A stretch of DNA of 54,561 nucleotides from Escherichia coli (GCF_003334785.1 NZ_QOWV01000022.1), one strand, 5' to 3'; counted from the first letter of the stretch, positions 18,529 through 42,300 are shown. The notes: generated by a model from the sequence alone, not told the origin. Numbers and translations are program-made.

Positions 18529-18604
<76 letters not shown>

Positions 18605-18657
18605 GTTTAAAAGACATCGGCGTCAGCGGATGTCTGGCTGAAAGGCCTGAAGAATTT

Positions 18658-18731
18658 GGCGCGTTAACAAAGCGGTTATGTAGCGGATTGCAAATCCGTC
18701 TAGTCCGGTTCGACTCCGGAACGCGCCTCCA
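18658..18731 (+). tRNA. cysT: tRNA-Cys (GCA)
   Basis: GGCGCGTTAACAAAGCGGTTATGTAGCGGATTGCAAATCCGTCTAGTCCGGTTCGACTCCGGAACGCGCCTCCA. Confidence 0.9.
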
Positions 18732-18743
18732 CTTTCTTCCCGA

Positions 18744-18830
18744 GCCCGGATGGTGGAATCGGTAGACACAAGGGATTTAAAATCCCTCGGCGTTCGCGCT
18801 GTGTGGGTTCAAGTCCCACTCCGGGTACCA
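18744..18830 (+). tRNA. leuZ: tRNA-Leu (UAA), long variable arm
   Basis: GCCCGGATGGTGGAATCGGTAGACACAAGGGATTTAAAATCCC...GGGTTCAAGTCCCACTCCGGGTACCA; the T-stem differs from the K-12 sequence as I recall it by two compensatory changes. Confidence 0.85.
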
Positions 18831-18871
18831 TGGGAAACATCAGAATAATCAAAGCAATAAGCAGTGTCGTG

Positions 18872-18896
18872 AAACCACCTCCGGGTGGTTTTTTTG
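18872..18896 (+). terminator. Rho-independent terminator of the tRNA operon
   Basis: AAACCACC-tccg-GGTGGTTT followed by TTTTT. Confidence 0.7.
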
Positions 18897-19072
18897 TGCC
18901 TGAAATTCATGTCCTGTGCATATCCTGTGCGCACGGGGTGCGATGAGCTGCAATCTTCAGCCTGGCAATGCCGAATCGAACGTGTCGCTTCCAGCATAGA
19001 GAACCAGGCCGCTTTGCCTGTTTTCCGGTACGCTTCCGGGAAGGGGGGGCCCGCTGAGCAAGCTGTAATGCT

Positions 19073-19813: not shown

Positions 19814-19893
19814 TCTTCAATACTGCCCCGTAATAAAAACACCTTCAGATATATATTATCTCCATGATATCAATCAGATACATGAGGATAAAT

Positions 19894-21111
19894 ATGCAAA
19901 AATCCTTCCGATTCACCAATTCATCCATCAAAGCCCTTCCGGCAAACACAGATACCCGATCTACAGAGCTAGAGGTATCTGATACCGAAGTTATTGGCCT
20001 CAAATGTCTCTCAGGTCGAACGGGTAACAAACGTTTCCTCCTGCGCTACACATTCCACGGTACCAAAAAAAGTATCAGTATTGGCAGATTCCCTGAAATT
20101 GATGTGGGGACAGCTCGCCAGATAGCTCGCCGTCATAAGGAGGCGATTGCACTTGGAAATGACCCCAAGGCAGAGCGCGATAATTATCGTGCGATGCCAA
20201 CGCTTAGTGAGTTTTTTCACCAGACCTATGTTCCGTTCATCAAGCGCCATAAAAAGTCCTGGGATAAGGATGTTCAGCGTTTCACGCAATACATTGAACC
20301 TCGTCTGGGAAAGATACGTTACTGCGATCTCAGGGCCAGAGAGATACAACAGGTGCTGTTTGACATGCTGGAGGGGCGTATTCACGGGCAGCAATATGCG
20401 CCGTCTACCTGTAACAGAGCCCTTGCTATTCTGAAAACGATGGGGCGTTATGCGTTGCGACAGGATGTGCTGGAAAAGAATGAAGCCGATAAGATCCCTT
20501 TACTGAAAGAGAATAATCAGCGGACGCGCTTTTTTGATGCTGATGAGATCAGGCGCATTCTTGACGCTGCTACCCAATATCCCAACAAAGCTGCCGGGGG
20601 ATTGATAGCCATGTTGTTGTTAACCGGTACACGCAAATCAGAAATGCTTAATGTCAGGCATGAACATATCGACCGGGCCAATCGTACTCTGTTCATTCCT
20701 TATACAAAAAATGGTCGCAGTCGGACGGTATATCTAAGCGATGCCGCATTATCGATTATTGATGCTATCCCACGAGTTGGCAGTAATCCGTATCTGTTCG
20801 CCATTAAGGATAATGGAAAACCGATATCGGAACCCCGGTGGGCATATGAAAAAATACTGGCACAGTGCGGTATAGACAAGAATGAAGTCTGTTTTCACAC
20901 CACACGTCATTCTGTTGCCTCTTTACTGGTTTCGAGTGGTCAATTCAGCCTGTATGACGTTAAAGCACAACTGGCGCATGCGAGTATTCAAAGTACGGAG
21001 CGCTACGCGAAATTGACACCAGAGCGTATGCGTCAGACCGGGCAGGGCGTAACTGACCTTCTTTTGAACACCGTTACTGCCGGTAACAATGATGATTTTA
21101 GCACCCCTTGA
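19894..21111 (+). CDS. Tyrosine recombinase / integrase (P4-like, N-terminal Arm-type domain)
   Basis: Start at MQKSFRF preceded by GAGGA. C-terminal catalytic region has HTTRHSVAS (His-x-x-Arg) and a Tyr in ERYAKL. Same orientation as and just downstream of tRNA-Leu. Confidence 0.85.
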   Translation: MQKSFRFTNSSIKALPANTDTRSTELEVSDTEVIGLKCLSGRTGNKRFLLRYTFHGTKKSISIGRFPEIDVGTARQIARRHKEAIALGNDPKAERDNYRAMPTLSEFFHQTYVPFIKRHKKSWDKDVQRFTQYIEPRLGKIRYCDLRAREIQQVLFDMLEGRIHGQQYAPSTCNRALAILKTMGRYALRQDVLEKNEADKIPLLKENNQRTRFFDADEIRRILDAATQYPNKAAGGLIAMLLLTGTRKSEMLNVRHEHIDRANRTLFIPYTKNGRSRTVYLSDAALSIIDAIPRVGSNPYLFAIKDNGKPISEPRWAYEKILAQCGIDKNEVCFHTTRHSVASLLVSSGQFSLYDVKAQLAHASIQSTERYAKLTPERMRQTGQGVTDLLLNTVTAGNNDDFSTP

Positions 21112-22474: not shown

Positions 22475-22909
22475 ATGCAAACCCAATATGCCTTAAAACA
22501 GGCAGGATTAACTCTGCCTGTGACTAAAGAATTTCAGCAGCATATTACTACGCTTCTGGCAAATCAGGTTTTACAAAAAATAACTGAGGCAGTGGTTATT
22601 AATTTCCGTGATCCGGACTACAGTGCAGAATCCGGCGGATTTCATCCGGTTGAAATGCGGTTTATCCGTCAGGATAACGAATGGTATTTCGATTATGTCA
22701 CAGACTTTAGTTACATGGGACGAGTCTACCCGGAACTGGAAAAGGAAATGGACTTTTGTTGGTCAGGTCAATACGTCTTCCATTATCTGATTGGGGATAT
22801 TTCACTGGCAGCAGAGAGGAATGAACTCTGGTCCCTGTGGGAGCGTAATTTTATGGAGTATCTCTCTATGGGGATTTACCGGGTAACGGTAACTGTGGAA
22901 AGTTGTTGA
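22475..22909 (+). CDS. Hypothetical protein (144 aa)
   Basis: ORF with AAGGAAA ribosome-binding site; no motif assigned with confidence. Confidence 0.5.
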   Translation: MQTQYALKQAGLTLPVTKEFQQHITTLLANQVLQKITEAVVINFRDPDYSAESGGFHPVEMRFIRQDNEWYFDYVTDFSYMGRVYPELEKEMDFCWSGQYVFHYLIGDISLAAERNELWSLWERNFMEYLSMGIYRVTVTVESC

Positions 22910-24399: not shown

Positions 24400-25302
24400 T
24401 TACGGGGCGTTACTTGGCTGGGTGTAACGTTTCAGTGCGGATTGTATATCTTCAGCAAGTTGTTGACGGATTGAGGCCGGTTGTATTACTTCGACATCCG
24501 GTATCCAGTATTTCATTAAAGGCATTATCTGATCTGTGTGTGTTACACGTGATATCACCAGTAAATCGCCAGACCGGGAAGTATGAATTATTTCCTGTCC
24601 TGGCAATAGATGACGGTGGGTAAACCACGGAGCAACATGTGCGGAAACTGAAATAAGAACTTCGATAAGGTCTTCGCTATACCAGATACCATCTGTCTTT
24701 TCTATTTTTTCATTAATTTCGGGGATTATCCTGAAAGAGATATTACTCATGCAAACGTCTTTGACAGATGAGATAACAAAGCTTTTTAATGTACTGTCAT
24801 GGGCGGCAGCGAGATACCACAATCCGTTGTCATTAACCAGTCTGTATGGCTCAACAGCCCGAAACTCTTTATCTTTGTAATTAAAATTTACTTTCTTCTG
24901 TGACAGGATGGCATAGGATAATACATTCAGAATTGACATGAATGATCCGCAGTTTTCGTATGGACGTTGTTTTATCAGAAACGGGTTGTTTTTCGTGTTA
25001 CCTAACAAAATACTCAGTAGTCTGTCATCCCAGCGAGGGAACAGCCCTTCAATGCCCAGGATGCGCGTGAAATGACGTAAATCAGCATTGCTGCGTTGAC
25101 CGAGAACACCGTCAGACAGGCGATAGCGACCATTTTGTCGAATCAGATTAAGATAGGACAGGCGCTGAGTAAGATCACGACGGATAGTTTTTTCGCAAAC
25201 GTTAAATTCCTCAGATAACTCCCGGACGGCTAGTGACTCACCATTGTTCAGGCGAGTTAATATCAATCCGAGTCGATATCCAAGTTTATCGTGCTTACCC
25301 AT
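24400..25302 (-). CDS. WYL-domain transcriptional regulator (HTH + WYL)
   Basis: 300 aa; N-terminal HTH ([21 protein letters not shown]) and a central literal WYL motif ([12 protein letters not shown]). Confidence 0.75.
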
Positions 25303-25681
25303 TCGTTTATCCGGTTAATGCCAGCGAAGAGGATATTTTCAGCAAAGTAACGGACAGGATGAGTCCACTTTTACTGTGACGGAGAAAAAAATTAACTCAT
25401 TAATTATCAATATATTAAAGCATTGCTGGAATCATCGAATAACATGTGGACTCATCCTGTCCATGTGTATTTTTACGTTCAGGGTGATAATTATTATCCT
25501 GACCTGTACATGACCTGTTTTTGCTGCATATTTGACCATGCACTTTTGCCATCAAGTCGGAGAGGCAGGGGGGAACGTAAGATCCGAAGGTTAGAGAGGT
25601 TATCAGCAATTACAATGATGATTAATATTTTCATAATATCGGAGAACATCATATTAGTTGAAATAACATAAAGGTGGTTCT

Positions 25682-26008
25682 ATGTATTTACATATCAGAA
25701 AGTATCAACTCGTAAATGCGAGATGGCGTGATGTCATTGATCTGACAGATTATGAAGAAACAATCAGTCAGGTTGTCGGTACATTATTTGGAAATGATTT
25801 TATTGAGGTCAGCGTTGAAACAAATTGTTTTATTCTGACAGTAAACAGTACAAGCAGTAAAATACCACACGGCATACTGGTGAATATGGGGAAAAGGCTG
25901 GCTGCTAATCTCCAGAGTATCACCTGTCATGCCATGCGGATCTATCATGTAAATGGCCATCCTGACGCGCGGCAGTTATTTCACTGTTTTGATGCCGATT
26001 GCCTGTGA
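25682..26008 (+). CDS. Hypothetical protein (108 aa)
   Basis: ORF with a strong AAGGTGG ribosome-binding site 5 nt upstream. Confidence 0.45.
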   Translation: MYLHIRKYQLVNARWRDVIDLTDYEETISQVVGTLFGNDFIEVSVETNCFILTVNSTSSKIPHGILVNMGKRLAANLQSITCHAMRIYHVNGHPDARQLFHCFDADCL

Positions 26009-26056
26009 TTAAGCCCCCAACTTCTGTTAAAGGAGTTGGGGGAGATTTAACGGTTA

Positions 26057-28657
26057 TCAGACTGGAAGACAGAATGTCGGATATTTACGGGCTATGATAT
26101 CCATCAGTGACTTCATTCGCGGTGTTACAGAACTAAATTTCATTTGGGGTATTTTTGCTCTTACCGCATTTTTTACATCAGTCACCGTTACTGAATAGCC
26201 TTCTGACGTCAGCCATTCAGCAACCTCTTTACAGGAATAACTTTTTTTATCTTTCAGCATAAGCCCCCATTGGCACTGAGTCAGCGCCCGGAGAAATAGT
26301 CTGACTAAAATATCATCACTACGTTTGCTTCCGACTTTTAGTTTCATATCAGAAAATACCGTCCGGCAATAGAGAAAATCACACCAGTCATCCCAGTCAG
26401 CCAGGGTCTTCAGTGTATGCGTTTGCCGCCAGTCGTCGAAAAGAGAGCGTTGCTGCAGAGCCTCTTCCATATTATCCCATGGGCGGGAAGACATCAGTAA
26501 ATGCCCTTCATTCATGGCGGGCTGTACGGGCTGGCGTTTGAAATCGAATTCCAGATTAAGACGGATATCCTGTTCCCGGGATACCAGATCGCTTTCCGAC
26601 AGCCACATCTCACGCGTTGATATCAACGTACTTCGGGATAACGTCTGACCGGGTAAACGATTAAGGTAAAGATCTACCATATAGTCGTTATAGTCACTGC
26701 GTGGAATATCGGCAGGAGGTTTGACGCCAGCCCTGGCATGAACAACAGGTTTTCCCTGAATAGCTCTATAGGTTAACTGCCCCCGGGTTTTCATGGCGAT
26801 AAGCTGGCTGACCTCATGCTTACATGTCAACATTGATGAACCCGGATCAACAATATCGCACAGCGACTGGAAGCGGGAAGACAGTGGACCGCTCATGTTT
26901 ATCTTGTTAAGTGGGCAATTTGTCAAAAAGCCATCGGTTGTGACGCTGACAACCGATGAATCAGAAGGCAAAGCATTCATGAGTTCCCCGGCAACGGCGC
27001 GGATAAATCCCGTCACATGCGCAGCAAAGAATGGCTGAGTAACCGATGATGGTGGGAGGGATCTGTTTAATCCACGGGCAGTATCAAAGGCGGTTTTGGC
27101 GCGAAGGCCCTGAGCAAGTTTGCCATAAAGCGAGTTGCCAATTTCTTTCCAGAATTTCTCCTCCAGAGAACCTTTAATATGGCGATTACGGTTCTCACGG
27201 ACCTGTTGAACAAAGGGAAGAAACACCGATGTTGATTCGCTGTTATGTGGGGAGGTGTCACAGATCCAGGGGACGATGATCCCATTATGGATCGTCATCT
27301 CTGCCCCGAGCGACAGAGCAAGTTCGATTTCAGGTGCCGTTGCCCATGATTCGCCACTTAATGGAAAGAATAACCCATATTGATCGGTCCGAACCGGCAG
27401 GCTGGGATAGGGAACTGATTCCGGGAACCGAAATGTGACAAGCGCAAATCCCATCACATGCCCACAGTAATCGTCCGGATTTTTACTGAGGCGGATGTTT
27501 CCGTAATCGGGTATGAGGATATCTAATAGCCCGGTGGTATACGCTCCAGCCAGATCGTAGTCATACCAGTGATCAGACGGTGTAACCCCCATCATAAAAC
27601 ACTCATTGCGTCCGCCGTGGTAACAGTTGATCGGGAACGTTTCAAACAGCTCTCTTGAAGGAACACTGGCGGGGTTTTTAATCGTCCGGAATGCCTGTTT
27701 CTCCGTGAGCCAGAGTTCACGGGTTTTAATGTGTGTCCCAAGGCAGACTTCGGGAGACATATTGTTTTCTTTAAGTGTTTTGGTGAACCGTGAAACTGCC
27801 ATCGCCCCGATGGTGGCGGGGACACGATCAATCATCAGCTCCCGGGCGCAAAAATTGCGAACCTGTAAAGCATAACGAACCGCAATCTCGGCATCCCGCA
27901 GAGCATAGGCTTCAAACCCTGCTCTGTCCCCCAGAAGATATTCACGCATATTGGTTATGGAATAAGGTGCAGGAATGGTGAGTTTGGGAAGACCCAGTAA
28001 TTCACCACATTCAGCCAGACCCATACCCCCGGGAGTGATAAGCAGTGTATCGATGAAAGCTACGTTACTGCAACGCGGAGGGGAAGTTCGTTTGTCAAAC
28101 ATTATCTGTTCAGTCTTTACGCGACGTTCCTGCTGTTCATCAAAATCGATACCGTAACGATTTTTGAAGCTGCTGACAGTACCGCGTATTCCTTTCAGAA
28201 GAATTTTGTAGTCTGACCAGAAATTGGCAAAGGAGGCGATATCCGCACGAATGAAATGCGCATATATATTAATAATACCGGGCCATTTTGTAATCACACC
28301 CGTTTCAAGAAGCGGTGTAATCGTTTGACAGAGAAAGTCCTTAAAAGACAGCCGGGATTTTTTCTGTGAGTCAGGTGGATAGATAATGTTCGATATACCT
28401 GTATTATCGGGTAAGACAACATAACTCTGATATGACAGAATATCATTCTGTCGTGTTTCAGGGTTGAAAACATATTCGGTATCAAAACCGATATGGAGCG
28501 TCAGGTCGTTTGAAATCACAGACACGTTTTTTGATGCAGGTGGCATCACAGGATAATCATCAAGCGTTTTAGGTCTTTTACGATTGAGCGCTGGCTCTGA
28601 AGTCACGGACTGATACCCCGAGGCGGCAGCGAGGATATCCTGCAAATTATGGCTCAT
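26057..28657 (-). CDS. Family B DNA polymerase, primer-independent type (piPolB-like), with 3'-5' exonuclease domain
   Basis: Start at MSHNLQD (GGAG upstream). Exo I-like FDTEYV, candidate motif A region YDYDLAGAYTTG, motif B KEIGNSLYGK (Kx3NSxYG) and motif-C-like VTTDGF. Assignment from motif recognition, not a search. Confidence 0.7.
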   Translation of the reverse strand: MSHNLQDILAAASGYQSVTSEPALNRKRPKTLDDYPVMPPASKNVSVISNDLTLHIGFDTEYVFNPETRQNDILSYQSYVVLPDNTGISNIIYPPDSQKKSRLSFKDFLCQTITPLLETGVITKWPGIINIYAHFIRADIASFANFWSDYKILLKGIRGTVSSFKNRYGIDFDEQQERRVKTEQIMFDKRTSPPRCSNVAFIDTLLITPGGMGLAECGELLGLPKLTIPAPYSITNMREYLLGDRAGFEAYALRDAEIAVRYALQVRNFCARELMIDRVPATIGAMAVSRFTKTLKENNMSPEVCLGTHIKTRELWLTEKQAFRTIKNPASVPSRELFETFPINCYHGGRNECFMMGVTPSDHWYDYDLAGAYTTGLLDILIPDYGNIRLSKNPDDYCGHVMGFALVTFRFPESVPYPSLPVRTDQYGLFFPLSGESWATAPEIELALSLGAEMTIHNGIIVPWICDTSPHNSESTSVFLPFVQQVRENRNRHIKGSLEEKFWKEIGNSLYGKLAQGLRAKTAFDTARGLNRSLPPSSVTQPFFAAHVTGFIRAVAGELMNALPSDSSVVSVTTDGFLTNCPLNKINMSGPLSSRFQSLCDIVDPGSSMLTCKHEVSQLIAMKTRGQLTYRAIQGKPVVHARAGVKPPADIPRSDYNDYMVDLYLNRLPGQTLSRSTLISTREMWLSESDLVSREQDIRLNLEFDFKRQPVQPAMNEGHLLMSSRPWDNMEEALQQRSLFDDWRQTHTLKTLADWDDWCDFLYCRTVFSDMKLKVGSKRSDDILVRLFLRALTQCQWGLMLKDKKSYSCKEVAEWLTSEGYSVTVTDVKNAVRAKIPQMKFSSVTPRMKSLMDIIARKYPTFCLPV

Positions 28658-28703
28658 AGTTAACTCCGAAAAAATGCCGGGAGCTGTGTCCCGGCATAAA
28701 GAA

Positions 28704-29342
28704 TCAAGATTTAATAACATTTACTACAGATTTGAAAATATCGGTTTTGCGTGATTCATCATCTGCATGGATAAATGAAACGAGGTTCCTGCCTGCTTTA
28801 ATCAGGATGCCACGTTGCGTCTTTTCCACAGATGGGGTGACGCGTGCAGATAACAGACAATTTTCATGTAACTGAAGAAACTTTTTTGAGGCGTAGCCGC
28901 CATGCAGTCGGGCTTTAATTTCATTATACATATCATCAAGAGAACCGGGTTCTCCTGATTCACTCAATACCGGATAGCCCTTCTTATCAAAAAGGCTGAG
29001 GATAGATTTACCATCATGTTCGAACAAGGTAACACCGTAAATGTATTTCATTCGAAAGGTGAGGGCGTCGGTGGTGTAGATCTCCTCCTGACAACTGAAA
29101 TTTTTGAGACGCCTGGCTAATTCATTAAAAACAGCACGAGCAGTAGCCGTGTCCTGCAGGGTGTAGGTATAAAGTACGAAGCCATCTGTGCCGATGAGCT
29201 TTACTAAGTTGTCCATAATCGTGATAGCGAGAACTAATGCAAAGGACAGATATTTTTCATCGTTGTCTACAGCTGTGCTTGCTGATTCGGGAATAATGTT
29301 CAGTGCATTATTAGCGTTATTTTCCGTGTTCTTAGTAACCAT
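28704..29342 (-). CDS. Hypothetical protein (212 aa) in an operon with the excisionase-like gene and the polymerase
   Basis: ORF between the Xis-like gene and the polymerase, same strand, short gaps. Confidence 0.5.
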   Translation of the reverse strand: MVTKNTENNANNALNIIPESASTAVDNDEKYLSFALVLAITIMDNLVKLIGTDGFVLYTYTLQDTATARAVFNELARRLKNFSCQEEIYTTDALTFRMKYIYGVTLFEHDGKSILSLFDKKGYPVLSESGEPGSLDDMYNEIKARLHGGYASKKFLQLHENCLLSARVTPSVEKTQRGILIKAGRNLVSFIHADDESRKTDIFKSVVNVIKS

Positions 29343-29532
29343 TTATATCACCTTTAAGTTTGTTTTGACGATGTGCATTTTCCCACTCAACAATATCGTC
29401 AAGAGAGAATCGTATAGCCCGCCCAATTCTGATGAAGGGCGGGAGTTTTCCGGGGTTGCGCGATATATCTGACGCAACCGTGGATGCAGAAAGATTAAAT
29501 CTTTCTGCGAACTGCTTAATGGTTAAATACAT
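29332..29532 (-). CDS. Excisionase / AlpA-like HTH DNA-binding protein
   Basis: 66 aa; LTIKQFAERFNLSASTV..IRIGRAIRFSLDDIVEWE is typical of the Xis/AlpA/MerR-like HTH family. Confidence 0.6.
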   Translation of the reverse strand: MYLTIKQFAERFNLSASTVASDISRNPGKLPPFIRIGRAIRFSLDDIVEWENAHRQNKLKGDINGY

Positions 29533-29674
29533 AAACCTCCGGTTTCAGAGAATAAGAAGCCACGCGGATTTAATATCAATCCACATTCTGTGATGACTTA
29601 ATGCAGGGCCCTGCAGAAGCATGCAATGACAATACCGTCCTTAAACGAGTGTTGCATCAATCACGAATCACAGA

Positions 29675-30811
29675 TCATAGGTTCATTTTTGTGTCATAAC
29701 TTTCTATGACCTGAGAAACCACTGCGTGTGATGTCGCTGCATTGTGAAAAGCGTAGCGACGGGTCGCCGTGAGTGAATGGTGATTTAGCAGATGGGAAGC
29801 GATTGCAATATCCCCGGTCGCCTGTAGTATCCGGGTGGCAAAGGTACGGCGCAGGTCATGCATCCGCAGGTTATCAATGTTGGCATCCCGACAAATACGG
29901 GCAAAGGTTGCACGCGGATATGCCAGAGGGCGGGCATTGTCGGTTAGTTGTGGAAAAATGTAAGTTTTGCTGAGCATCAGGTCCTGCTGGCACTGGACAA
30001 CTGCAATGGCTGGAGGTGCAAGTGGGCAGGTGAAAGGGTGTCCGGACTTTGTATCAGGCAGTATGAGTTGATGCATATCCGGGTGCCAGTACTCCCATTT
30101 CAGGGTACATACCTCACCAATACGCATCCCCGTATAAAGAGCAAGCAATATAGAATCAGCTGCCGGTGTTTGCAGCGCTGTTGCCGCGTCAATAAAGCGC
30201 GGGATTTCTGTCGCTGACAGCGTGCGATAGCGAATGTTATTTTCTTTCAGATAGCGGACATGTGACATCGGGGAATGTGTGATCCATCCAGCACGTACTG
30301 CCAGAGAGCATATTTTGGACAATATTGCGAGGATTCGGTTTACTGTTGACGGACGTAATTTTTCCCGTAAGCCAGCAGCATATTGTTCCAGTTCTCCTGC
30401 CGTGATGTCGCGAAGTTGCCGCTTGCCCCAGAACGGGCGAACGTAGAGGTTGAGTTTTGACAACTCTGACTGAGGACTCTTTTTATACAACTGCAAATCC
30501 GGTAGCCACAGGTCATTGATGGCCTGTTCCACAGTGAATCGACGGGACTGAACCGCAAGACGATTTTTATCAGCAAGCAGTTTCATCACATGCTGACGGG
30601 CATCCTCAACGCAGAGCTGAGGGAACTGACCCAGGGTTTCATATATACGCTGATTGTTTATAGTGGCACGAAAGGCCAGCGTGATCCGATTGGGATACAC
30701 CAGAGCACGCAGGTTTTGGCAGTGAATATCACGGTATTCCTGACAACCCGTGAGGGGATGTGGAAGTTGGTGAATTGATTTGTTGCTGAAACGCAGATCC
30801 AGAATAGGCAT
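29675..30811 (-). CDS. Tyrosine recombinase (XerC/phage-integrase family), second recombinase of the element
   Basis: 378 aa; catalytic-domain motifs RIGEVCTLKW, HDLRRTFATR, and a Tyr in TRRYAFH. Confidence 0.8.
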   Translation of the reverse strand: MPILDLRFSNKSIHQLPHPLTGCQEYRDIHCQNLRALVYPNRITLAFRATINNQRIYETLGQFPQLCVEDARQHVMKLLADKNRLAVQSRRFTVEQAINDLWLPDLQLYKKSPQSELSKLNLYVRPFWGKRQLRDITAGELEQYAAGLREKLRPSTVNRILAILSKICSLAVRAGWITHSPMSHVRYLKENNIRYRTLSATEIPRFIDAATALQTPAADSILLALYTGMRIGEVCTLKWEYWHPDMHQLILPDTKSGHPFTCPLAPPAIAVVQCQQDLMLSKTYIFPQLTDNARPLAYPRATFARICRDANIDNLRMHDLRRTFATRILQATGDIAIASHLLNHHSLTATRRYAFHNAATSHAVVSQVIESYDTKMNL

Positions 30812-30954
30812 CGTATTTCTCCTGTAAATGACACTGGAAAAATACGATGTGAGGTTATAGTCTGCCAGTTACAGCTTTCACAGTTCATCAGGTGAAAAAA
30901 CGCAGACTCGGATATAATGGCAACACAATTCCATGTCGCCATTATATTAAGAAA

Positions 30955-32085
30955 CTACAGTTTCATGATCTTGTTCGCTATTTTTTCGAAGTAAACCTCA
31001 TTCTTAAGAAGAGTGATATTGTTTGTTTGAACACCCAGACCACTGGAGGTTGACTGGAAGTTGAGTGAACCACTTATCACTGTGGACTTTCCTGATAAAA
31101 AGGAAATCAACTCCTTGGAAGATGGTGCCCACTCAGGGTTTAAGAGTAATGCAATATAGATATATGTCTTACGAAGCAATTGTTCGATATCTTTTTTATG
31201 CCCTGTAGTGTTTTGCTTACCTTTAATGCAAATAGATTTGATTATGAACTCATCAGGGCTGGTTAAAGGCGTTTTAAACTCACTCAGTGATTCATCGTTA
31301 CGAATGACTTCATAAGGCAGCATAGATAAAATGATCAATGCAATCATTTTAGGATGATAAAGGTAGTTATCACGAATGATTTTTCCTGCCTTCATTGTAT
31401 TGAGCGTTGTTTGAATAAATACAAAGTGATATTCAGAGCAAAAGTAACAAAACACAAGCCAGGATAGGTCAATGGCTGGAATGTTAATATCCTTAGGTAG
31501 TTTGTTTAGCCAGTATTCAGACTTCAAAAAGGTCCTGATTTCAACAGTATATTCATGCATTTTTGCGCTGAAATCAAGCATTGCTACTTGACCTGATTGT
31601 TCCGTAACTGTGTGGTCTATAAATGTTAGTGTATTGCACATTTTATCCAGCGTGTTTTGAAAACAAGAAAGGAGTTCGGCATTATTATTACCATTAACCG
31701 CAGATGAAAGTTCAGTTTTAATAAATGCATCCAGTAGCATACAGATTTCTTTCGGAATTACATTTTTACGGGATTGCTGTGAATAGAAATGTACTGCCAG
31801 TAAATTAAAGGCAGTGCACTCCTTTTTTAACCATTGTTCGAGCACTGGGACGTGCTGAAAAAAATTGATATGCTTAGCAGTAGATGCTGATGGAGATAGT
31901 ACATGAAGAATATCTACAGCAGGCTTCATTTGCAATATTTGATCGGATTCGGTAGTCGTCATTAGTTCCAGTAATTGCTGTTCAGAAAATAGTTTAGACA
32001 GGTGATCAATGTCTTTTTGGTATTGATTAAGTTTTGTTAAATTCCCCGGTATACGGGTTACATTGTTTTTCATTTTCTCGAACAT
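30955..32085 (-). CDS. Hypothetical protein (376 aa), AT-rich ORFan
   Basis: Long uninterrupted ORF in roughly 30-35% GC DNA; no motif recognised. Confidence 0.5.
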   Translation of the reverse strand: MFEKMKNNVTRIPGNLTKLNQYQKDIDHLSKLFSEQQLLELMTTTESDQILQMKPAVDILHVLSPSASTAKHINFFQHVPVLEQWLKKECTAFNLLAVHFYSQQSRKNVIPKEICMLLDAFIKTELSSAVNGNNNAELLSCFQNTLDKMCNTLTFIDHTVTEQSGQVAMLDFSAKMHEYTVEIRTFLKSEYWLNKLPKDINIPAIDLSWLVFCYFCSEYHFVFIQTTLNTMKAGKIIRDNYLYHPKMIALIILSMLPYEVIRNDESLSEFKTPLTSPDEFIIKSICIKGKQNTTGHKKDIEQLLRKTYIYIALLLNPEWAPSSKELISFLSGKSTVISGSLNFQSTSSGLGVQTNNITLLKNEVYFEKIANKIMKL

Positions 32086-33824: not shown

Positions 33825-33868
33825 CAACGTTGCCGATTATGGATCATGTCAGCTTCACACACCAGAAT

Positions 33869-34130: not shown

Positions 34131-35654
34131 ATGAACGACAAAATCAGTCAGGACACGATCAACAAAGCCCTGTGGGCCGCGTGTGATACGTTCCGTGGCA
34201 CCATCAGTGCTGATACCTATAAAGACTTTATCCTTACCATGCTGTTCCTCAAGTACATTTCAGATGTCTGGCAGGATCACTATGACGAATACAAAGAACA
34301 GTATGGCGATGCGCCGGAACTGATTGAAGCGATGATGGCCAACGAGCGTTTTGTACTGCCAAAAAGTGCCAGCTTTTATGCGCTGTACGAACGCCGCCAT
34401 GAGCCGGGTAACGGTGAGCGTATCGATCAGGCTCTGCATGCAATCGAAGAAGCCAACGGAACCAAACTGAAAGATGCCGGGAAAAGCGTGTTCCAGGATA
34501 TTTCGTTTAACACTGACCGCTTGGGTGAAGAAAAACAGAAGAACACCATCCTGCGTCAGTTGCTGGAAGACTTCGCCGGTGAAGATCTCAACCTGAAGCC
34601 AAGCCGTGTAGGTACGCTGGACGTTATCGGTAATGCCTACGAATATCTGATCAAAAACTTTGCCGCCAGCGGTGGGCAGAAAGCCGGGGAGTTCTATACC
34701 CCGCCGGAAGTTTCGGACCTGATTGCAGAACTGCTCGATCCGCAACCGGGTGATACCATCTGCGATCCAGCCTGTGGTTCCGGTTCATTATTGATGAAGT
34801 GTGGGCGTAAAATTGTCTCCGGGCATGATAGTCGTAACTATGCATTGTTCGGTCAGGAAGCGATCGGTTCTACGTGGTCGCTGGCGAAAATGAATATGTT
34901 CCTGCACGGGGAAGACAACCATAAAATCGAGTGGGGCGATACCATTCGTAACCCGAAGCTGCTCGATAAAAATGGCGACCTGATGCTGTTTGATATCGTG
35001 ACCGCTAACCCACCGTTCAGCCTCGATAAGTGGGGCCATGACGAGGCCGAGAACGATAAGTTTGGCCGTTTTCGTCGCGGTGTACCGCCGAAGACTAAAG
35101 GAGATTACGCTTTTATCTCGCATATGATCGAAACCCTGAAACCGGGAACTGGCCGTATGGGCGTAGTTGTGCCACACGGTGTGCTTTTCCGTGGCTCCAG
35201 CGAAGGTAAAATTCGCCAGAAACTGATCGACGAAAATTTGCTGGATGCGGTAATTGGTCTGCCGGAAAAACTGTTCTACGGTACGGGGATTCCGGCTGCG
35301 ATTCTGATTTTCAAAAAGCAGAAAGTTGATGACAAGGTGCTGTTTATCGATGCCAGCCGTGAATTCAAGGCAGGTAAAAACCAGAACCAGCTCAGCGCAG
35401 AAAACATCGAGAAAATCGTCAAGACCTACCGTGATGGCGATAACGTCGAGAAATACGCCTATCTTGCCAGCCTGAAAGAGATTCAGGACAACGATTACAA
35501 CCTTAATATTCCACGTTATGTTGATACTTTCGAGGAAGAAGACGAGATTGATTTACTGGTCGTGCGTGCTGAACGTGAGCAACTGAAGGTGGAACTGGCG
35601 AATCTGGAAACGGAGATGGCGGGTTATCTGAAGGAGTTGGGTTATGGTGCCTAA
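34131..35654 (+). CDS. hsdM: Type I restriction-modification system methyltransferase subunit
   Basis: 507 aa; AdoMet-binding DPACGSGSLL and catalytic NPPF (TANPPFS) of N6-adenine methyltransferases; followed by hsdS. Confidence 0.9.
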   Translation: MNDKISQDTINKALWAACDTFRGTISADTYKDFILTMLFLKYISDVWQDHYDEYKEQYGDAPELIEAMMANERFVLPKSASFYALYERRHEPGNGERIDQALHAIEEANGTKLKDAGKSVFQDISFNTDRLGEEKQKNTILRQLLEDFAGEDLNLKPSRVGTLDVIGNAYEYLIKNFAASGGQKAGEFYTPPEVSDLIAELLDPQPGDTICDPACGSGSLLMKCGRKIVSGHDSRNYALFGQEAIGSTWSLAKMNMFLHGEDNHKIEWGDTIRNPKLLDKNGDLMLFDIVTANPPFSLDKWGHDEAENDKFGRFRRGVPPKTKGDYAFISHMIETLKPGTGRMGVVVPHGVLFRGSSEGKIRQKLIDENLLDAVIGLPEKLFYGTGIPAAILIFKKQKVDDKVLFIDASREFKAGKNQNQLSAENIEKIVKTYRDGDNVEKYAYLASLKEIQDNDYNLNIPRYVDTFEEEDEIDLLVVRAEREQLKVELANLETEMAGYLKELGYGA

Positions 35655-36837
35655 GGGGTGGAGTGAAAGTTATCTTGGTGAAGTGGTTACATATAAAAAA
35701 GGCTATGCATTTAATTCATCATTATATGCAGAGGAAGGGATACGGATTGTTCGAATTTCGGACACAACTAGGGACTCCATCCATTCTGACAACCCTGTTT
35801 TTATTGCTGGCGGGAATGTCGAAGGTTTAGAGCAATACAGTCTTTTCGAAAACGATATAATACTCTCTACTGTGGGATCTCGACCACATTTACTGGACTC
35901 CATGGTTGGTAAAGCTGTAAAGGTTCCGCGCAGTGCACATAATAGCTTGCTTAATCAGAATCTTGTTAAACTCATACCGAAGAAAACAAAAATAACAAAT
36001 GAGTATCTTTTTAGCATGCTTAAAACAAAGGAATTTATACAATTCATCTCAAACTTGGTTCGTGGTAATGCAAACCAAGTCTCTATAACTTTGGCTGATC
36101 TTTTTAAATATAAATTCATCTTACCTTCCCTCCCCGAACAAAAGAAAATCGCCCAAATCCTGTCAACCTGGGATAAGGCGATTTCGGTGACGGAAAAGCT
36201 TCTCACCAACAGTCAGCAGCAGAAAAAAGCCCTGATGCAGCAATTACTTACCGGGAAGAAACGGTTGCTGGATGAGAATGGGGTGAGGTTTATCAAAAAA
36301 TGGGAAAAAACCACTTTAGGGGATATCGCAAAAATCACAACAGGTAGCTCTAATAGACAGGATTCAAGCTTGGATGGAAAGTATACTTTCTTTGACCGTT
36401 CTGAGGATATTAGAACTAGCAGTATTTATCTATTTGATGGAGAGGCAATTATAGTTCCTGGAGAAGGGCAGAGATTTGAACCAAAGTATTTCATTGGTAA
36501 ATTCGATCTTCACCAAAGAACCTACGCCATAATGGATTTTGCAAGCCATTCTGGGAGGTTTCTTTTCTACATGATTGATTATCTTAAAGTTTATTTTCTT
36601 AACCAAGCTGTGGGGTCAACTGTAAAGTCTTTACGACTTCCAATGTTTCAAAAAATGACCTTTGAAGCACCGGAAATTGAAGAACAACAAAAAATCGCCG
36701 CCGTCCTCTCCGCTGCCGATGCAGAAATCTCCACACTGGAGAAAAAACTCGCCTGCCTGAAGGGTGAGAAAAAAGCCCTGATGCAACAGCTGCTGACCGG
36801 TAAGCGTCGGGTGGTTGTTGATGTGGATGCCGCGTAA
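35644..36837 (+). CDS. hsdS: Type I restriction-modification system specificity subunit
   Basis: 397 aa; two target-recognition halves separated and followed by the conserved repeats KKALMQQLLTGKKRL and KKALMQQLLTGKRRV; start overlaps the hsdM end. Confidence 0.85.
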   Translation: MVPKGWSESYLGEVVTYKKGYAFNSSLYAEEGIRIVRISDTTRDSIHSDNPVFIAGGNVEGLEQYSLFENDIILSTVGSRPHLLDSMVGKAVKVPRSAHNSLLNQNLVKLIPKKTKITNEYLFSMLKTKEFIQFISNLVRGNANQVSITLADLFKYKFILPSLPEQKKIAQILSTWDKAISVTEKLLTNSQQQKKALMQQLLTGKKRLLDENGVRFIKKWEKTTLGDIAKITTGSSNRQDSSLDGKYTFFDRSEDIRTSSIYLFDGEAIIVPGEGQRFEPKYFIGKFDLHQRTYAIMDFASHSGRFLFYMIDYLKVYFLNQAVGSTVKSLRLPMFQKMTFEAPEIEEQQKIAAVLSAADAEISTLEKKLACLKGEKKALMQQLLTGKRRVVVDVDAA

Positions 36838-37520
36838 TGAAACTGACCAAAAACGCCCCGCTGACTGAGCGTGAAATCGACTGGCTGGAAGAGGTGCTGA
36901 TGAAGTATGGCAATGATGACTCGGTGCTCTGCTTCTCTGAACTGGATGGCTTTCTGACGGCGATTGTCTCCGGCCCGAATATGATTTCCCCGAATATCTG
37001 GCTCAGTGCCCTTTGGGGGCGGGGTGATTACCACCCTCGCTGGACCACTGAAAAAGAGATGACGCGTTTTGTGGGGCTGTGTTTTCAGCATATGAACGAT
37101 ATCGCTGGCTGCCTGTATGAGGCCCCTGAACAGTTTGAACCGATTTTCAATGGACGTGAGGTGAAGGGGAAGACATATACCATCGTCGAAGAGTGGTGTT
37201 TCGGGTATATGAAAGGCCGGTCTCTGGATGACTGGTCAGCCTTGCCAGAGGCCTTACGTCCCTCGCTGGAGGCGATAGCCCTTCATGGTATCGAAAAGAA
37301 CTTCCCAGTGGTTGAGAAAATGTCACCTGTTCAATTTGAACAGAGTATTACTCTCATTCAGCCTGCGGCACTGGCGCTTTACCAGCACTGGTTGTCGGTG
37401 AGAATGTCAGAGGCATCATCCCGGCCTGTTCCCGTGAAGGGGGCAGAAAAACTGCCCGGTCGTAATGACCCGTGTCAGTGTGGCAGTGGTAAAAAATTTA
37501 AAAAGTGCTGCCTGCACTGA
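36837..37520 (+). CDS. YecA-like protein (UPF0149 domain with C-terminal SEC-C metal-binding motif) embedded in the hsd operon
   Basis: 227 aa; C-terminal GRNDPCQCGSGKKFKKCC is a SEC-C motif; overall resemblance to E. coli YecA as recalled; start shares the hsdS stop (ATGA overlap). Confidence 0.65.
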   Translation: MKLTKNAPLTEREIDWLEEVLMKYGNDDSVLCFSELDGFLTAIVSGPNMISPNIWLSALWGRGDYHPRWTTEKEMTRFVGLCFQHMNDIAGCLYEAPEQFEPIFNGREVKGKTYTIVEEWCFGYMKGRSLDDWSALPEALRPSLEAIALHGIEKNFPVVEKMSPVQFEQSITLIQPAALALYQHWLSVRMSEASSRPVPVKGAEKLPGRNDPCQCGSGKKFKKCCLH

Positions 37521-37542
37521 CAAAGCGGAAGGGGGCTTGCTC

Positions 37543-39327
37543 ATGGCAGTGAACAATCTGGATCGTTCCCGGTGGTACATGGGAAATGTTCTCTGGTTCG
37601 GAGGCTACAACAGCAAAACGGATCGGGAGAATAACTTTGGCTTTCTCTTATCAGAGAATGGTAATGAGCTGTTTTTTCATAAGAATGAGATAAGCCGGAA
37701 CTATACACCCGCTGACAATACACCGGTGCTGTTCAGGGAAGGTACAGGTAAAAATGGTAAGCCTACGGCTTTTAATGTTCACATTCTTGATAAAACAGAT
37801 GAGGAGACGGCTGAGCTCCTTATTGAATATCTCCGGGCTATTATTGAGGAGGGCGTTGATTTCGCTCGTTGGCGTTATCGTGACTGCGTTATTAATTTTC
37901 TCACTCAGTCCTTTGGCGAAAGGGCTATAATTCGGTTAGTTACCAGTGATATAGCTGCTACAAAAGTCTTGCCGCTATTTTTAAAATCACGTAACTACGA
38001 TAACCAGTTTGCACTTTTCGCCTCTGATAAGAATTTTGATGATTTGACCGCACAACAAATATCTCCTGCGGTCATGCCTTCGTCATTTATCGATAATAAC
38101 ATTGATCAGTTCGCTGTTTGGGTGAAAAGGTGTTCTGCGGCTACGGATTGCCAGGGGGCTTCAACATCGGACATCATCAATGAATTACTCAGCCATATAT
38201 CTATAAGTGCTATTCTCTACCTGGCATTTTACGATTGTATAAGCAGCGAGCGGATTCTTGAACATCGGCATGATGATATAGAGAATTTTGTTCGACGTAG
38301 TTTCACGAAAAATAAAATGGATATACAACCATTTGTCCGTGATGCCTATCAGCAGAAATTCTCATCGAGAGAGCAATTTTATAAACATTCCGTGATTAGT
38401 CCTTTTGTCAATAAGTATTTGATTAAACAGAAGATGTTCAGGAAAGATTTCAGTTTTGTTAATGATATTGAGTCGAATACTGAAATTTCTTCTGACCCTG
38501 AATACTTTATTCTGAGTAAATTGTTACCGCTGATTGGGCGTAACGATGAACAGTCCGTTCTGAGTATTATTCTGCATGAGATATGGCAGGGAGTGTTGTC
38601 GGGTAAAATCCCGGTAAGCCATCCTTCTGTTTTCAAATTGTTCCCACAGTGTAGCTCATTGAAAATTCGTTCCCGGAATTTAAAATTATCCTGTGAGGCA
38701 TTTCACTGGAATGCAAAACAACCTGACGGAACGATAGAGAAAAAATTCCTTTGTCGTTCGAAAATCTGCCATGATCCGCAGGTACTGCCCGACCTCAGTC
38801 GGGATTACATCGACTTCACTATTTATGACTGGCTTGCCCACTATGGCATGACCTATCTGATTGCAGGCGAACCTTCTAAGCGGGATTTCCCAATTAAACT
38901 GGCTGGGTATTTCAATCGTATCAGAGAATTACATTCCCGCTTGCATTGCCGAAGTTGTGGGGTGCTGATGGTTCCAGATATGAAATATGCTCGTGTGGAA
39001 GTCAGCGTCTGGGATACAAAGTCGAAAGGATTTGTGAAAAAACCTTTCCAGGCCGCGTATCGCCTGACCGTCTTTAAATGTGCCAGTCATTCGTGCGAAC
39101 AGTTTGGTATCGGGCATTACATTAATCACTGTATTGGTTACAAATGCAGCGAAATAATTGACGCCAGGGATTTGCATGAAAAATGTTCAGAAGGACGATT
39201 TATTTGTGCATCCTGTGGTTCCTGCTGTACGACGCATCAGGAGAAATTTGGTAATGTAAACAAGGGCGAAACAGAACAGGTCAAGTACAATCGCCTTTAT
39301 CGGGACTCGCCGTTCTTTTCATCATAA
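37543..39327 (+). CDS. Cold-shock-domain (OB-fold) protein with large uncharacterised middle region and Cys-rich C-terminus, embedded in the hsd operon
   Basis: Start at MAVNNLD (AAGGGGG upstream). N-terminus GNVLWFGG..NFGFL..ELFFHKNEI..KPTAFNV parallels CspA (GIVKWFN..GFGFI..DVFVHFSAI); C-terminus has several CxxC/CxxxxC clusters. Confidence 0.6.
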   Translation: MAVNNLDRSRWYMGNVLWFGGYNSKTDRENNFGFLLSENGNELFFHKNEISRNYTPADNTPVLFREGTGKNGKPTAFNVHILDKTDEETAELLIEYLRAIIEEGVDFARWRYRDCVINFLTQSFGERAIIRLVTSDIAATKVLPLFLKSRNYDNQFALFASDKNFDDLTAQQISPAVMPSSFIDNNIDQFAVWVKRCSAATDCQGASTSDIINELLSHISISAILYLAFYDCISSERILEHRHDDIENFVRRSFTKNKMDIQPFVRDAYQQKFSSREQFYKHSVISPFVNKYLIKQKMFRKDFSFVNDIESNTEISSDPEYFILSKLLPLIGRNDEQSVLSIILHEIWQGVLSGKIPVSHPSVFKLFPQCSSLKIRSRNLKLSCEAFHWNAKQPDGTIEKKFLCRSKICHDPQVLPDLSRDYIDFTIYDWLAHYGMTYLIAGEPSKRDFPIKLAGYFNRIRELHSRLHCRSCGVLMVPDMKYARVEVSVWDTKSKGFVKKPFQAAYRLTVFKCASHSCEQFGIGHYINHCIGYKCSEIIDARDLHEKCSEGRFICASCGSCCTTHQEKFGNVNKGETEQVKYNRLYRDSPFFSS

Positions 39328-39396
39328 GTCTTCGTTCATTTTGAGTATGTCCGTAAGGACATACAGTTTCACCTCTTAGCCAAGAAGGATTACCGG

Positions 39397-42300
39397 GTGG
39401 ATAAGCACTACCAACCTAAATTCCAGGAAGAATACAGCGCCAAAATTCCGGCACTGACGTTACTGACCAGCCTCGGCTGGACGTTTTTATCTCCGAAACA
39501 GATTATGGATTACCGGGGCTATAAACAGGATGAGGTGGTGCTGCGTCCGGTTCTGCGTGAAGAGCTGTCGAAGCGTTCCTTTATGGCGGGTGGCAAAACC
39601 TGCCAGTTATCGGAAAAAGCACTGGATAACCTGATATCACAGGTCTGTTCTCCGGCGCTGAATGAAGGGCTGCTCAAAGCCAATGAACGGATGTATAACC
39701 ATCTGCTCTACGGTATCGCCGTCACGGAGTTTGTCGATGGCAAGAAGGTCAACCCCACCATTGCGCTGATCGACTGGGAACATCCGGAAAATAACCAGTT
39801 CCATTTTACTGAAGAATTTACGGTATTGCGGTCAGGTGGTGTTGAAACCCGGAGGCCAGATATTGTCTGCTTTGTTAATGGTATCCCGCTGGCTGTTATT
39901 GAAGCGAAAAGCCCGGCAGGCCACGGCAAGAAAGGACCAACCATTGACGAAGGGATATCCCAGAGTATCCGCAACCAGCTCAACGATGAAATCCCGCAGC
40001 TGTTTGCTTACAGCCAGATATTACTATCGATTAACGGGCATGACGGGCGCTACGGTACCTGTCATACACCAATGAAATTCTGGGCGGCATGGCGCGAAGA
40101 AGATATTACCGATGCGCAGATGTATGCTCTGCGCAACCATCCTTTATCGACTGAACAAATTCATGCGTTGTTTGATCATCGTCCATCAGCCGATCTCAAC
40201 TGGTACCAACAGTTAATCGCCGCCGGTGAACTGGCTGTCAGTGGACAGGACAAACTGCTCATCAGCCTGCTTTCGCCGGAACGTCTGCTGGAGATGACCC
40301 GCTTCTTCACTCTGTTTGATAAAAAGACCGGGAAAATTGTCGCCCGCTATCAGCAGGTGTTCGGGATAAAAAGACTGCTGGAACGCATCAGTACCCGCAG
40401 ACCAGACGGGGGCAGGGAAGGTGGGGTGATCTGGCATACCACGGGGTCAGGTAAATCTTACACCATGGTGTTCCTCAGCAAGGCGCTGATTCTTCATGAC
40501 AGCCTGAAGCGGTGTCGTATTGTGGTGGTGACGGACCGTATCGATCTTGAAGAACAGCTCAGCAATACCTTTGCATCCGGCGGCGAGTTGGCCGGGAAAA
40601 AAGACAAAGCCAATGCAATGGCAACATCCGGGCAGATGCTGGCGAAACAGATTGGCTCCGGTAAAGAACGCATCATTTTCACCCTAATCCAGAAATTTAA
40701 TTCAGCGACAAAACTTCCTGAATGCGTCAATACCAGCCCCGATATCATCGTTCTGATTGATGAAGGACACCGTAGCCAGGGTGGTGAGAACCATGTGCGA
40801 ATGAAACTGGCACTGCCGAACGCCGCCTTTGTGGCATTTACTGGTACGCCATTGCTAAAAGAAGATAAGACCACCAATAAATTCGGACCGATTGTCCACG
40901 CTTATACCATGCAGCGAGCGGTAGAAGATAAAGCCGTTACACCTTTGCTGTATGAAGAACGTATTCCCGACCTTGAGGTTAACGATCGGGCAATAGATGC
41001 CTGGTTTGATCGTATTACCGATGGGTTAAGCGAAGCGCAAAAAGCCGACCTTAAGCGTAAATATGCCCGTAAAGGTGAGGTCTACAGTGCAGATGACCGC
41101 ATCCGGCTGATCGCACTCGATATCGCCACACACTTCTCGAAGAATATTGATGAGGGGCTGAAAGGCCAGCTTGCCTGCGACAGCAAGATTTCCGCCATCA
41201 AATATAAAAAGTATCTTGATGAAGCCGGGTTGTTTGAGTCAGCAGTAGTTATCAGCCCGCCGGATACCCGGGAAGGGAATACTGAGGTGGATGAAAGCAA
41301 ACTGCCGGAAGTGACGAAATGGTGGAAGGATAATGTCGGCACGCAGGATGAGTCTGTGTATACCCGCAATATCATCAGTCGTTTCGATACCGATGAGAAG
41401 CTCAAATTGCTGATAGTCGTTGATAAACTGCTCACCGGGTTTGATGAGCCGAAGAATACCGTGCTGTATATCGACAAGCCGCTTAAGTCCCACAACCTTA
41501 TCCAGGCGATTGCGCGGGTGAACCGACTGCATCCACTGAAAAAGTTCGGTCTGCTGATTGATTATCGCGGTATTCTGGCTGAGCTGGACACGACTATCGG
41601 CAAATATCAGGACCTCGCCTCCCGAACTCAGGGCGGATACGATATCAAAGATATTGACGGGCTGTACAGCGCCATGAGCTCTGAATACAAGCGTCTACCG
41701 CATCTGTATAACCAGCTGTGGGCCATATTTGCTGGTGTCAAAAACAAAAATGATACTGAGCAGTTACGTGCGGTACTGGTGCCTAAAATGGAAGAACGTG
41801 ACGGAGAGATGGTCGATATCCATCAGAAAACCCGTGATGATTTCTTCGAGGCGTTAACGGCCTTTGCCGGATGCCTGAAAGTGGCACTGCAGTCCGCTAC
41901 CTTCTTCACCGACAAGAGCTTTACGGAACAAGACCGAAATCTCTATAAAGAAACCGTAAAACAGATGTCCAGCCTGCGCCAGTGGGCGATGCAGGTAAGT
42001 GGAGAGCAGGTCAATTATGACGACTACGCCGAGCAGGTGAAAAAACTGCTGGATAAGCATGTCACCGGCGTTGAGGTTCGTGAACCGGATGGCGTGTATG
42101 AAGTCGGTAAAATGGGCAAGAGCGAAAAGCCCGAAGAGTGGGACAACAATAAAACCCGCAATGAAACCGACATCATTAAAACCCGTGTGACAAAGATGAT
42201 TGAGCAGGAGCTGCGTGATGACCCGTATGCTCAGGAAGCCTTTTCAAAACTCCTGCGTATGGCTATTGAAGAGGCTGAAAAACTGTTCGACCATCCGTTG

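Follow-up and report, generated by a model that had tools for sequence, protein, structure and literature searches.

A pipolin core at tRNA-Leu of Escherichia coli with its predicted primer-independent DNA polymerase as the last gene of a conserved colinear module

We examined a 54,561-nucleotide stretch of Escherichia coli DNA (GCF_003334785.1, NZ_QOWV01000022.1; hereafter the window), a segment of E. coli chromosome in which a pipolin has inserted at the tRNA-Leu gene on the downstream side of pgsA. Pipolins, a type of integrative island, encode piPolB, a primer-independent family B DNA polymerase (PMC5695915). The evidence supports, with high confidence, an account in which the window holds the maintenance core of an E. 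coli pipolin at tRNA-Leu and in which the family B polymerase, identified as piPolB by its sequence, is encoded by the last gene of a conserved colinear module. An initial annotation, made from the sequence alone, had described an excisionase-like gene, a 212-amino-acid gene without recognisable motifs (here orf212) and a family B polymerase gene as one minus-strand operon, and had judged the polymerase consistent with a primer-independent one. That reading of the polymerase is already known and restates published work of 2017-2024; pipolins and piPolB have been published since 2017, this pipolin is an unremarkable one among those of E. coli, and the window adds no new kind of system. Relative to the accessible parts of PMC7385651 and PMC11551731, to which our citations of these two papers refer throughout, there are small additions that we regard as modest leads, namely the fixed position of orf212 by piPolB, a three-unit PH-like model of its product, a hairpin that spans lineages and a 17-nt box pair at the gene of the WYL regulator. 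These leads, which are not results, bear on how the pipolin is replicated and how it controls its polymerase in the cell.

Identification of the polymerase

The longest open reading frame (ORF) of the polymerase gene (26057..28720) would encode 887 amino acids and includes the sequences FDTEYV and KEIGNSLYGK, both of which had been claimed for it. The true start is almost certainly the ATG at 28657, which yields a protein of 866 amino acids, because GGAG lies 6 nt upstream of this codon, RefSeq uses it in a 99.5%-identical genome, and it is the only start that reproduces the published residue numbering; the ATG at 28720 would force the ribosome through a perfect 9-bp hairpin. Since the start is at 28657, the real spacer between orf212 and the polymerase gene is 46 nt, and the apparent overlap of 17 nt is an artefact of taking the longest ORF.

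Numbered from this start, the Exo I motif FDTEYV provides D59 and E61, and D139 and Y251/D255, whose contexts in our reading are Exo II/III-like, do not vary among four diverged piPolBs. The Pol A motif was found as YDYDLAGAY with D368, the Pol B motif (Kx3NSxYG) as KEIGNSLYG at residues 504-512, and the Pol C motif as SVTTDG at residues 571-576, in which threonine takes the place of the first aspartate and which contains the catalytic D575. The motif KH-X8-KTRG, which replaces KxY, is present as KHEVSQLIAMKTRG at residues 613-626 and includes the invariant lysine K613. The catalytic aspartates D368 and D575 are both intact. The features reported for the reference piPolB are D59/E61, D368, SxTTDG and KH-X8-KTRG with K613, H614, K623 and R625; in that enzyme D59A/E61A are the exonuclease mutations and K613 is needed for priming, and in 2017 the enzyme was demonstrated to initiate DNA synthesis with neither primer nor terminal protein (PMC5695915). 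All residue numbers coincide with the published ones, and the polymerase is therefore a full-length orthologue without insertions or deletions, a match judged by published residue numbers and motifs, not by percent identity. The reference enzyme comes from the pipolin of E. coli 3-373-03_S1_C2 and shares with the present one its length of 866 amino acids, key residues, motifs, host species and tRNA-Leu site (PMC5695915). Judged by these sequence features, the polymerase is piPolB, and the earlier assignment to the primer-independent family B polymerases is borne out by every published hallmark at its published residue number, in a tRNA-integrated element with the pipolin core.

Generic libraries matched piPolB weakly (Pfam DNA_pol_B_2, E 0.0097; PHROG DNA polymerase, E 6e-6), no match was obtained in NCBIfam or PADLOC, and sequence and profile searches of the PDB gave none even at E 10. 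The identical protein is already public on 32 contigs, mostly under the name 'hypothetical protein'. Its nearest phage relatives are tectiviral PolBs, with 27% identity over the palm. The TPR1 and TPR2 insertions are a feature of the piPolB class that is shared with protein-primed PolBs.

Host site and island boundaries

The 3.5-kb region that spans the excisionase-like gene, orf212 and piPolB (26057-29532) was found at an identity of at least 95% in 297 of 5426 complete E. coli genomes, on the chromosome every time. Positions 8266-35661 of the window align at 97% with E. coli strain CAVP776 (locus L001), whose flank according to RefSeq consists of fliA, fliZ, tcyJ, dcyD, tcyLN, sdiA, uvrY, uvrC, pgsA, tRNA-Gly, tRNA-Cys and tRNA-Leu; ARAGORN placed three tRNA genes at 18529-18830 of the window. 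A direct repeat (att) overlaps the 3' part of tRNA-Leu. In CAVP776, a second att copy (L001 40712-40844, 94.7%) lies directly before yecA, and the pair bounds the island there. The island of the window runs past the window end, because the second att copy is not in the window and the cargo beyond 43432 differs from that of CAVP776; the distal repeat and yecA lie outside the window, and both repeats are present in the 97%-identical L001. This location agrees with published accounts, which put E. coli pipolins at a Leu-tRNA gene (PMC7385651) between pgsA and yecA (PMC11551731). The published enterobacterial pipolin core is complete here and in its published arrangement, with the integrase IntSXT, DUF2787, the WYL regulator, piPolB, and IntP2 with the excisionase. 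Published enterobacterial pipolins likewise have this core, orphan genes in between and the same types of distal cargo (PMC11551731, PMC7385651).

The colinear module

All three minus-strand ORFs of the initial annotation were recovered where it had put them (26057..28720, 28704..29342 and 29332..29532). Its gene limits stand as ORFs, with two amendments: the polymerase starts at 28657, and the module also takes in a tyrosine recombinase gene (IntP2) and a 376-amino-acid orphan gene (orf376) upstream. The order orf376, IntP2, Xis, orf212 and piPolB, all on the same strand, was found in every locus recovered, and is shared by loci of E. coli, Citrobacter, Buttiauxella, Intestinirhabdus and Enterobacter and by metagenome contigs; the comparison of orf212 synteny covers Enterobacterales. 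Each full-length orf212 homologue that could be placed on a contig lies, where the contig reaches, between an HTH_17 Xis-like gene and a piPolB gene of 866-869 amino acids, and farther upstream stand an integrase gene and an orphan gene of 370-400 amino acids (301 in L006 and L007). Seven species-representative genomes that were found through the polymerase (three Citrobacter, two Buttiauxella, Intestinirhabdus and one Enterobacter metagenome-assembled genome) keep the module order wherever the contig extends far enough. A piPolB profile search aimed at Vibrio and Aeromonas pipolins returned only near-identical E. coli clusters.

The genes of the module have diverged to different degrees. Across the diverged loci, identity to the window was 60-86% for piPolB, 63-90% for IntP2, 31-69% for orf212 and 28-41% for orf376. 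The dN/dS ratio was 0.22-0.37 for orf212, 0.13-0.20 for piPolB and about 0-0.06 for Xis. Sequence comparison of this kind indicates that orf212 is a real gene under purifying selection, fast-evolving and pipolin-specific.

The orphan protein orf212

In line with the lack of recognisable motifs noted initially, searches of Pfam (even at E 10), NCBIfam, PHROGs, PADLOC and the sequences of the PDB returned nothing for orf212. A HMMER search of 1.84 billion representatives gave 20 matches, of which three were spurious and most of the others fragments; P0019, P0027 and P0031 were dropped as homologues, being long tandem-repeat proteins that score by many summed weak stretches. In a profile search, 35 of 5.8 billion clusters matched, and all the names given were 'hypothetical protein'; the clusters named to species or family all belonged to Enterobacterales (E. 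coli, Lelliottia, Hafnia, Leclercia, Klebsiella aerogenes and Enterobacteriaceae). Plasmids yielded no match to orf212, and the profile scan of viral contigs yielded one near-identical locus.

The structure prediction that had been suggested for this protein was run with AlphaFold2 on an 11-sequence alignment, and the model had a mean pLDDT of 89.6 and a pTM of 0.82, with the first ten residues disordered. It consists of three successive units, each with five strands and a long helix, at residues 23-82, 88-149 and 155-211. Sequence repeats among the units were not significant (best E 0.16), so that the threefold pattern is structural only. In a Foldseek search of AFDB50, members of the protein's own family ranked highest, followed by four uncharacterised proteins and, below these, many LytTR-type regulators. 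The four proteins (A0A161YZ84, A0A2T5ERY3, A0A151KS02 and A0A066RMF1; 153-178 amino acids, E 1e-5 to 2e-3) are the best structural matches outside the family; three of them are named as Vibrio or Photobacterium, and on the strength of the model the four may be shorter counterparts of orf212 in Vibrionales pipolins. Against BFVD, LytTR-type proteins and a phage protein named 'DNA binding regulator' were the best named matches, each of them weak. Outside the family, no whole-protein structural match was present among those listed in the structure searches. We read the model as a tandem of PH-like units that weakly resembles LytTR proteins and would suit DNA or protein binding. From LytTR-type domains of the AgrA/ComE class the protein differs in that it has no Pfam LytTR match, three units as opposed to one domain, and no receiver domain. 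The most likely role of orf212 would be that of an adaptor which binds DNA or protein and cooperates with Xis/IntP2 or with piPolB; the replication accessory factor suggested in the initial annotation would be one possibility.

The intercistronic hairpin

Between the stop codon of orf212 and the ribosome-binding site of piPolB lies a hairpin with a 9-bp stem, 6 GC pairs and a 6-nt loop, followed by UUUUU, which was flagged by a terminator scan and has the features of an intrinsic terminator. Its folding energy is -15.6 kcal/mol, with z = -3 to -3.9 relative to shuffled sequences, and it is more stable than nearly all of these. A GC-rich hairpin of 8-9 pairs was found 6-15 nt past the orf212 stop codon in all of the loci examined (8/8), with three unrelated stem sequences across lineages (GCCGGGA..., GCGGGAGAG... 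and CGGTGCC...) and one compensatory change, from C:G to U:A, inside the Buttiauxella-type group. The hairpins were analysed lineage by lineage, a joint MAFFT alignment having put them out of register. A U-run 3' of the hairpin is present only in the E. coli/Citrobacter type and is missing from L002, L004, L012, L013 and L015. The conserved feature is therefore the hairpin itself, which may act in RNA (through termination, stability or translation) or in DNA; in E. coli, its sequence suggests that it probably terminates a fraction of transcripts and keeps the polymerase below Xis and orf212.

The arrangement of the genes favours co-expression, as they are on the same strand, the Xis-like gene and orf212 overlap by 11 nt as read in the sequence, the spacers are short, and the stretch from the orf212 stop codon to the piPolB ribosome-binding site is too small to hold a promoter. 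To this extent the proposed operon stands as a gene arrangement, whereas the terminator-like hairpin that parts orf212 from the polymerase means that, as far as gene arrangement can tell, one simple operon needs qualifying.

Proposed working of the module and alternatives

We propose that an integrase and the Xis-like protein would excise the island as a circle. Translation of Xis and orf212 would be coupled through their overlap, and transcription would have to cross the GC-rich hairpin, which in E. coli resembles an intrinsic terminator, to reach piPolB. Because the hairpin intervenes, the polymerase would be made in smaller amounts than the products of the upstream genes, and its level would follow theirs. 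piPolB would then copy the circle, or help damaged host DNA, without a primase.

Six points weigh against this account. In standard growth, no excised pipolins could be detected in E. coli (PMC7385651). The sole effect of piPolB shown in vivo is better survival after DNA damage (PMC5695915), not replication of the element. No second copy of the tRNA-Leu/att sequence is present within the window. The orf212 proteins are acidic to neutral (pI 5.0-7.1), which is atypical of a general DNA binder. Termination cannot be the conserved role of the hairpin, because the U-run is limited to the E. coli/Citrobacter type. Nor did promoter scans lend the claimed operon a signal: they found fewer sites than in shuffled sequences and nothing above chance, and are uninformative on transcription units.

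A somewhat unlikely alternative places orf212 in the recombination half of the module, where it would either assist IntP2/Xis as a directionality or architectural cofactor or regulate their expression, and would be linked to piPolB by gene order only. In the E. coli type the start of orf212 overlaps the end of the Xis-like gene by 11 nt, in the other types the genes lie side by side, a hairpin separates orf212 from piPolB and none separates it from Xis, and LytTR-type DNA-binding regulators are the best multi-unit structural analogues of orf212; yet each contig-placed full-length orf212 adjoins piPolB, no plasmid record matched, and the protein is acidic to neutral. It is unlikely, in our estimate, that orf212 is a dedicated partner of piPolB, a three-unit PH/LytTR-like factor which would give a sequence-unspecific polymerase a defined start site or switch it on only after excision, with the conserved downstream hairpin coupling polymerase dosage to orf212 translation. 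In vitro, piPolB works without a primer and makes no strong demands on template sequence. If such a partnership were true, orf212 would be the first known accessory factor of a primer-independent PolB, in the gene slot that terminal proteins occupy in protein-primed systems.

Quite unlikely is the view that the module does not serve mainly for replication and that piPolB and orf212 provide DNA-damage tolerance or an anti-phage function for the host or the island. It draws on the improved survival after mitomycin C and UV when piPolB was expressed (PMC5695915), on the undetectable excision mentioned above, on a cargo made up entirely of defence genes and on the presence, as a core neighbour, of a WYL protein, whose class has links to damage and defence responses. 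On the other side, piPolB, orf212 and orf376 are without a match among the PADLOC models, and piPolB is the one gene common to every pipolin, also to the plasmid forms, which have to replicate (PMC5695915, PMC11551731).

That orf212 is a terminal (priming) protein or the descendant of one, with the polymerase protein-primed in vivo, is extremely improbable: the gene stands immediately upstream of PolB in all loci, encodes about 200 amino acids and evolves faster than PolB, like the terminal-protein genes of tectiviruses and phi29-like phages, the nearest phage polymerases are tectiviral, and Microbacterium phage MuffinTheCat (L017) has a 226-amino-acid gene abutting its polymerase gene, but the reference enzyme, whose motifs are identical, starts synthesis de novo with no priming protein (PMC5695915), the element sits in the chromosome at a tRNA gene, with direct repeats and recombinases, and is not linear with terminal inverted repeats, the orf212 model is mainly beta and PH-like with no terminal protein among the matches listed in PDB, AFDB50 and BFVD, and a profile comparison of orf212 with the tectiviral upstream gene gave a probability of 0.1%. 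The earlier statement that no obvious terminal-protein gene lies nearby agrees with these structural searches. The pairs of PolB and terminal protein in Tectiviridae and phi29-like phages likewise have a gene of about 200 amino acids directly upstream of a family B polymerase; protein-primed systems combine a linear genome with inverted terminal repeats, which the pipolin lacks, and the PolC and KxY motifs here are of the piPolB type. The nearest phage PolBs are those of small Microbacterium tectiviruses, annotated 'DNA primase/polymerase', which have 27% identity over the palm and lack KTRG; in MuffinTheCat (L017 978-3706), the 226-amino-acid gene upstream of the polymerase gene shows no sequence resemblance to orf212 that could be detected.

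P4-like satellites and Gram-negative phage-inducible chromosomal islands are also integrated at tRNA genes and carry on one strand an integrase, a small AlpA/Xis-type HTH protein and their own replicase. This replicase is a primase-helicase, as opposed to the family B polymerase of the pipolin. To our knowledge, the pipolin is unlike those satellites in having no capsid-redirecting or packaging genes and no known helper phage. The preferred account remains that of a maintenance core in which recombination genes, orf212 and piPolB form one colinear module. The accessible parts of PMC11551731 and PMC7385651 mention core 'orphan proteins' without description, and discuss neither the orf212 fold nor the exclusive place of the gene between Xis and piPolB nor the hairpin.

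Other features of the island

The features of the window are listed in Table 1.

Table 1. Positions of the pipolin features in the window and the basis of their assignment
Feature	Coordinates	Strand	Basis
tRNA-Leu (anticodon taa), integration target	18744..18830	+	after pgsA, tRNA-Gly and tRNA-Cys; ARAGORN and RefSeq annotation of L001
att direct repeat, tRNA-proximal end, overlapping the 3' part of tRNA-Leu	18775..18905	+	match to the second copy in L001
Tyrosine integrase adjoining the att site ('IntSXT' of the literature)	19864..21111	+	NCBIfam tyrosine recombinase matches
DUF2787 protein, core gene	22475..22909	+	RefSeq; PF10980 on homologues
HTH-WYL regulator, core gene	24400..25302	-	PADLOC WYL 3e-21; PF13280 on homologues
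17-nt near-palindromic box GGACAGGATGAGTCCAC, two inverted copies 77 nt apart	25352-25368 and 25446-25462		upstream of the WYL gene; arms 100% complementary
orf108, 108-aa orphan gene, convergent with piPolB	25682..26008	+	ORF
Hairpin CCCCCAACTTCT / AGGAGTTGGGGG between the convergent piPolB and orf108 stop codons	26014..26042		12-nt arms, 92% complementary
piPolB, primer-independent family B DNA polymerase, 866 aa	26057..28657	-	motifs at published residues; RefSeq start
Hairpin ATGCCGGGA-CACAGC-TCCCGGCAT, then TTTTT	28669..28697 (stem-loop 28697..28674)	-	6 nt after the orf212 stop codon; piPolB GGAG and ATG directly after
orf212, pipolin-specific orphan, modelled as three tandem PH-like beta units	28704..29342	-	212 aa; no family match; AlphaFold2 pLDDT 89.6
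Xis/AlpA-like HTH_17 protein, 66 aa	29332..29532	-	TIGR01764 'excise', PHROG 66; PF12728 on homologues
Second tyrosine integrase ('IntP2' of the literature)	29675..30811	-	PHROG 1 integrase 4e-52; NCBIfam
orf376, orphan first gene of the colinear module	30955..32085	-	same position in loci reaching far enough upstream
Defence cargo module	34131..53181	+	type I restriction-modification (M, S, R) with PDC-S12, two DUF262/HEC-06-like genes, Hhe helicase; PADLOC and NCBIfam

Both integrases of the core are described in PMC11551731, IntP2 with an excisionase after it and near piPolB. The homologue of the att-proximal integrase in L006 has the domains Arm-DNA-bind_3 and Phage_integrase. Within the core, two small orphan genes accompany the DUF2787 gene, and a DUF726 gene accompanies the HTH-WYL gene. 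The pair of GGACAGGATGAGTCCAC boxes upstream of the latter is kept in L006, L004 and L012 with a spacing of 68-80 nt, in loci whose polymerases are only 70-86% identical; the pair is a candidate for the operator of the WYL regulator, which it probably is, and possibly an origin-like element.

On the 3' side of piPolB, orf108 has counterparts with 62-98% identity in L002 (62%) and the E. coli-type loci and is missing from L004-type and Buttiauxella-type pipolins; in the Buttiauxella type, the WYL gene comes directly after piPolB. From its sequence and its position between the two convergent genes, the hairpin at 26014-26042 is likely a bidirectional terminator, and L006 and L002 have a hairpin of altered sequence at the equivalent position.

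The Xis-like protein scored 24.1 bits against TIGR01764 'excise', below the cut-off of 28.8, and PHROG 66 is an excisionase/regulator family. In the spacer between IntP2 and Xis, a perfect 14-nt palindrome, TGCAGGGCCCTGCA, was found at 29602-29615; related palindromes (CTGCAGGGCCCGGCAG and similar) occupy this spacer in L004, L012 and L013 and are absent from L015, L005 and L002. A further hairpin lies at 30912-30947, 3' of the orf376 stop codon, and hairpins or palindromes are present at the other junctions of the module too. orf376 had no match in Pfam, NCBIfam, PHROG or PADLOC, and its AlphaFold2 model is all-alpha, of moderate confidence (pLDDT 71). Its homologues in the diverged full-length loci are 28-41% identical, where the piPolBs are 60-71% identical, and the gene is cut to 301 amino acids in L006 and L007. 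Beyond orf376, the longest ORF at 32847-33827 on the minus strand has 326 amino acids and a TTG start, and the homologous coding sequence of CAVP776 (L001 26536-27768) has 410 amino acids; the copy in the window may be truncated or a pseudogene.

The cargo at 34131-54329 consists entirely of defence genes and closes with an IS3 transposase fragment at 53721-54329; the same types of cargo are named in PMC11551731. The PDC-S12 gene is embedded in the type I restriction-modification locus, as is a 620-amino-acid gene (annotated as a cold-shock-domain protein in the near-identical L001). The cargo also holds an M48 peptidase gene, and the two DUF262/HEC-06-like genes are neighbours. The Hhe anti-phage helicase, of 1809 amino acids, scored 2623 bits against a cut-off of 2000 bits.

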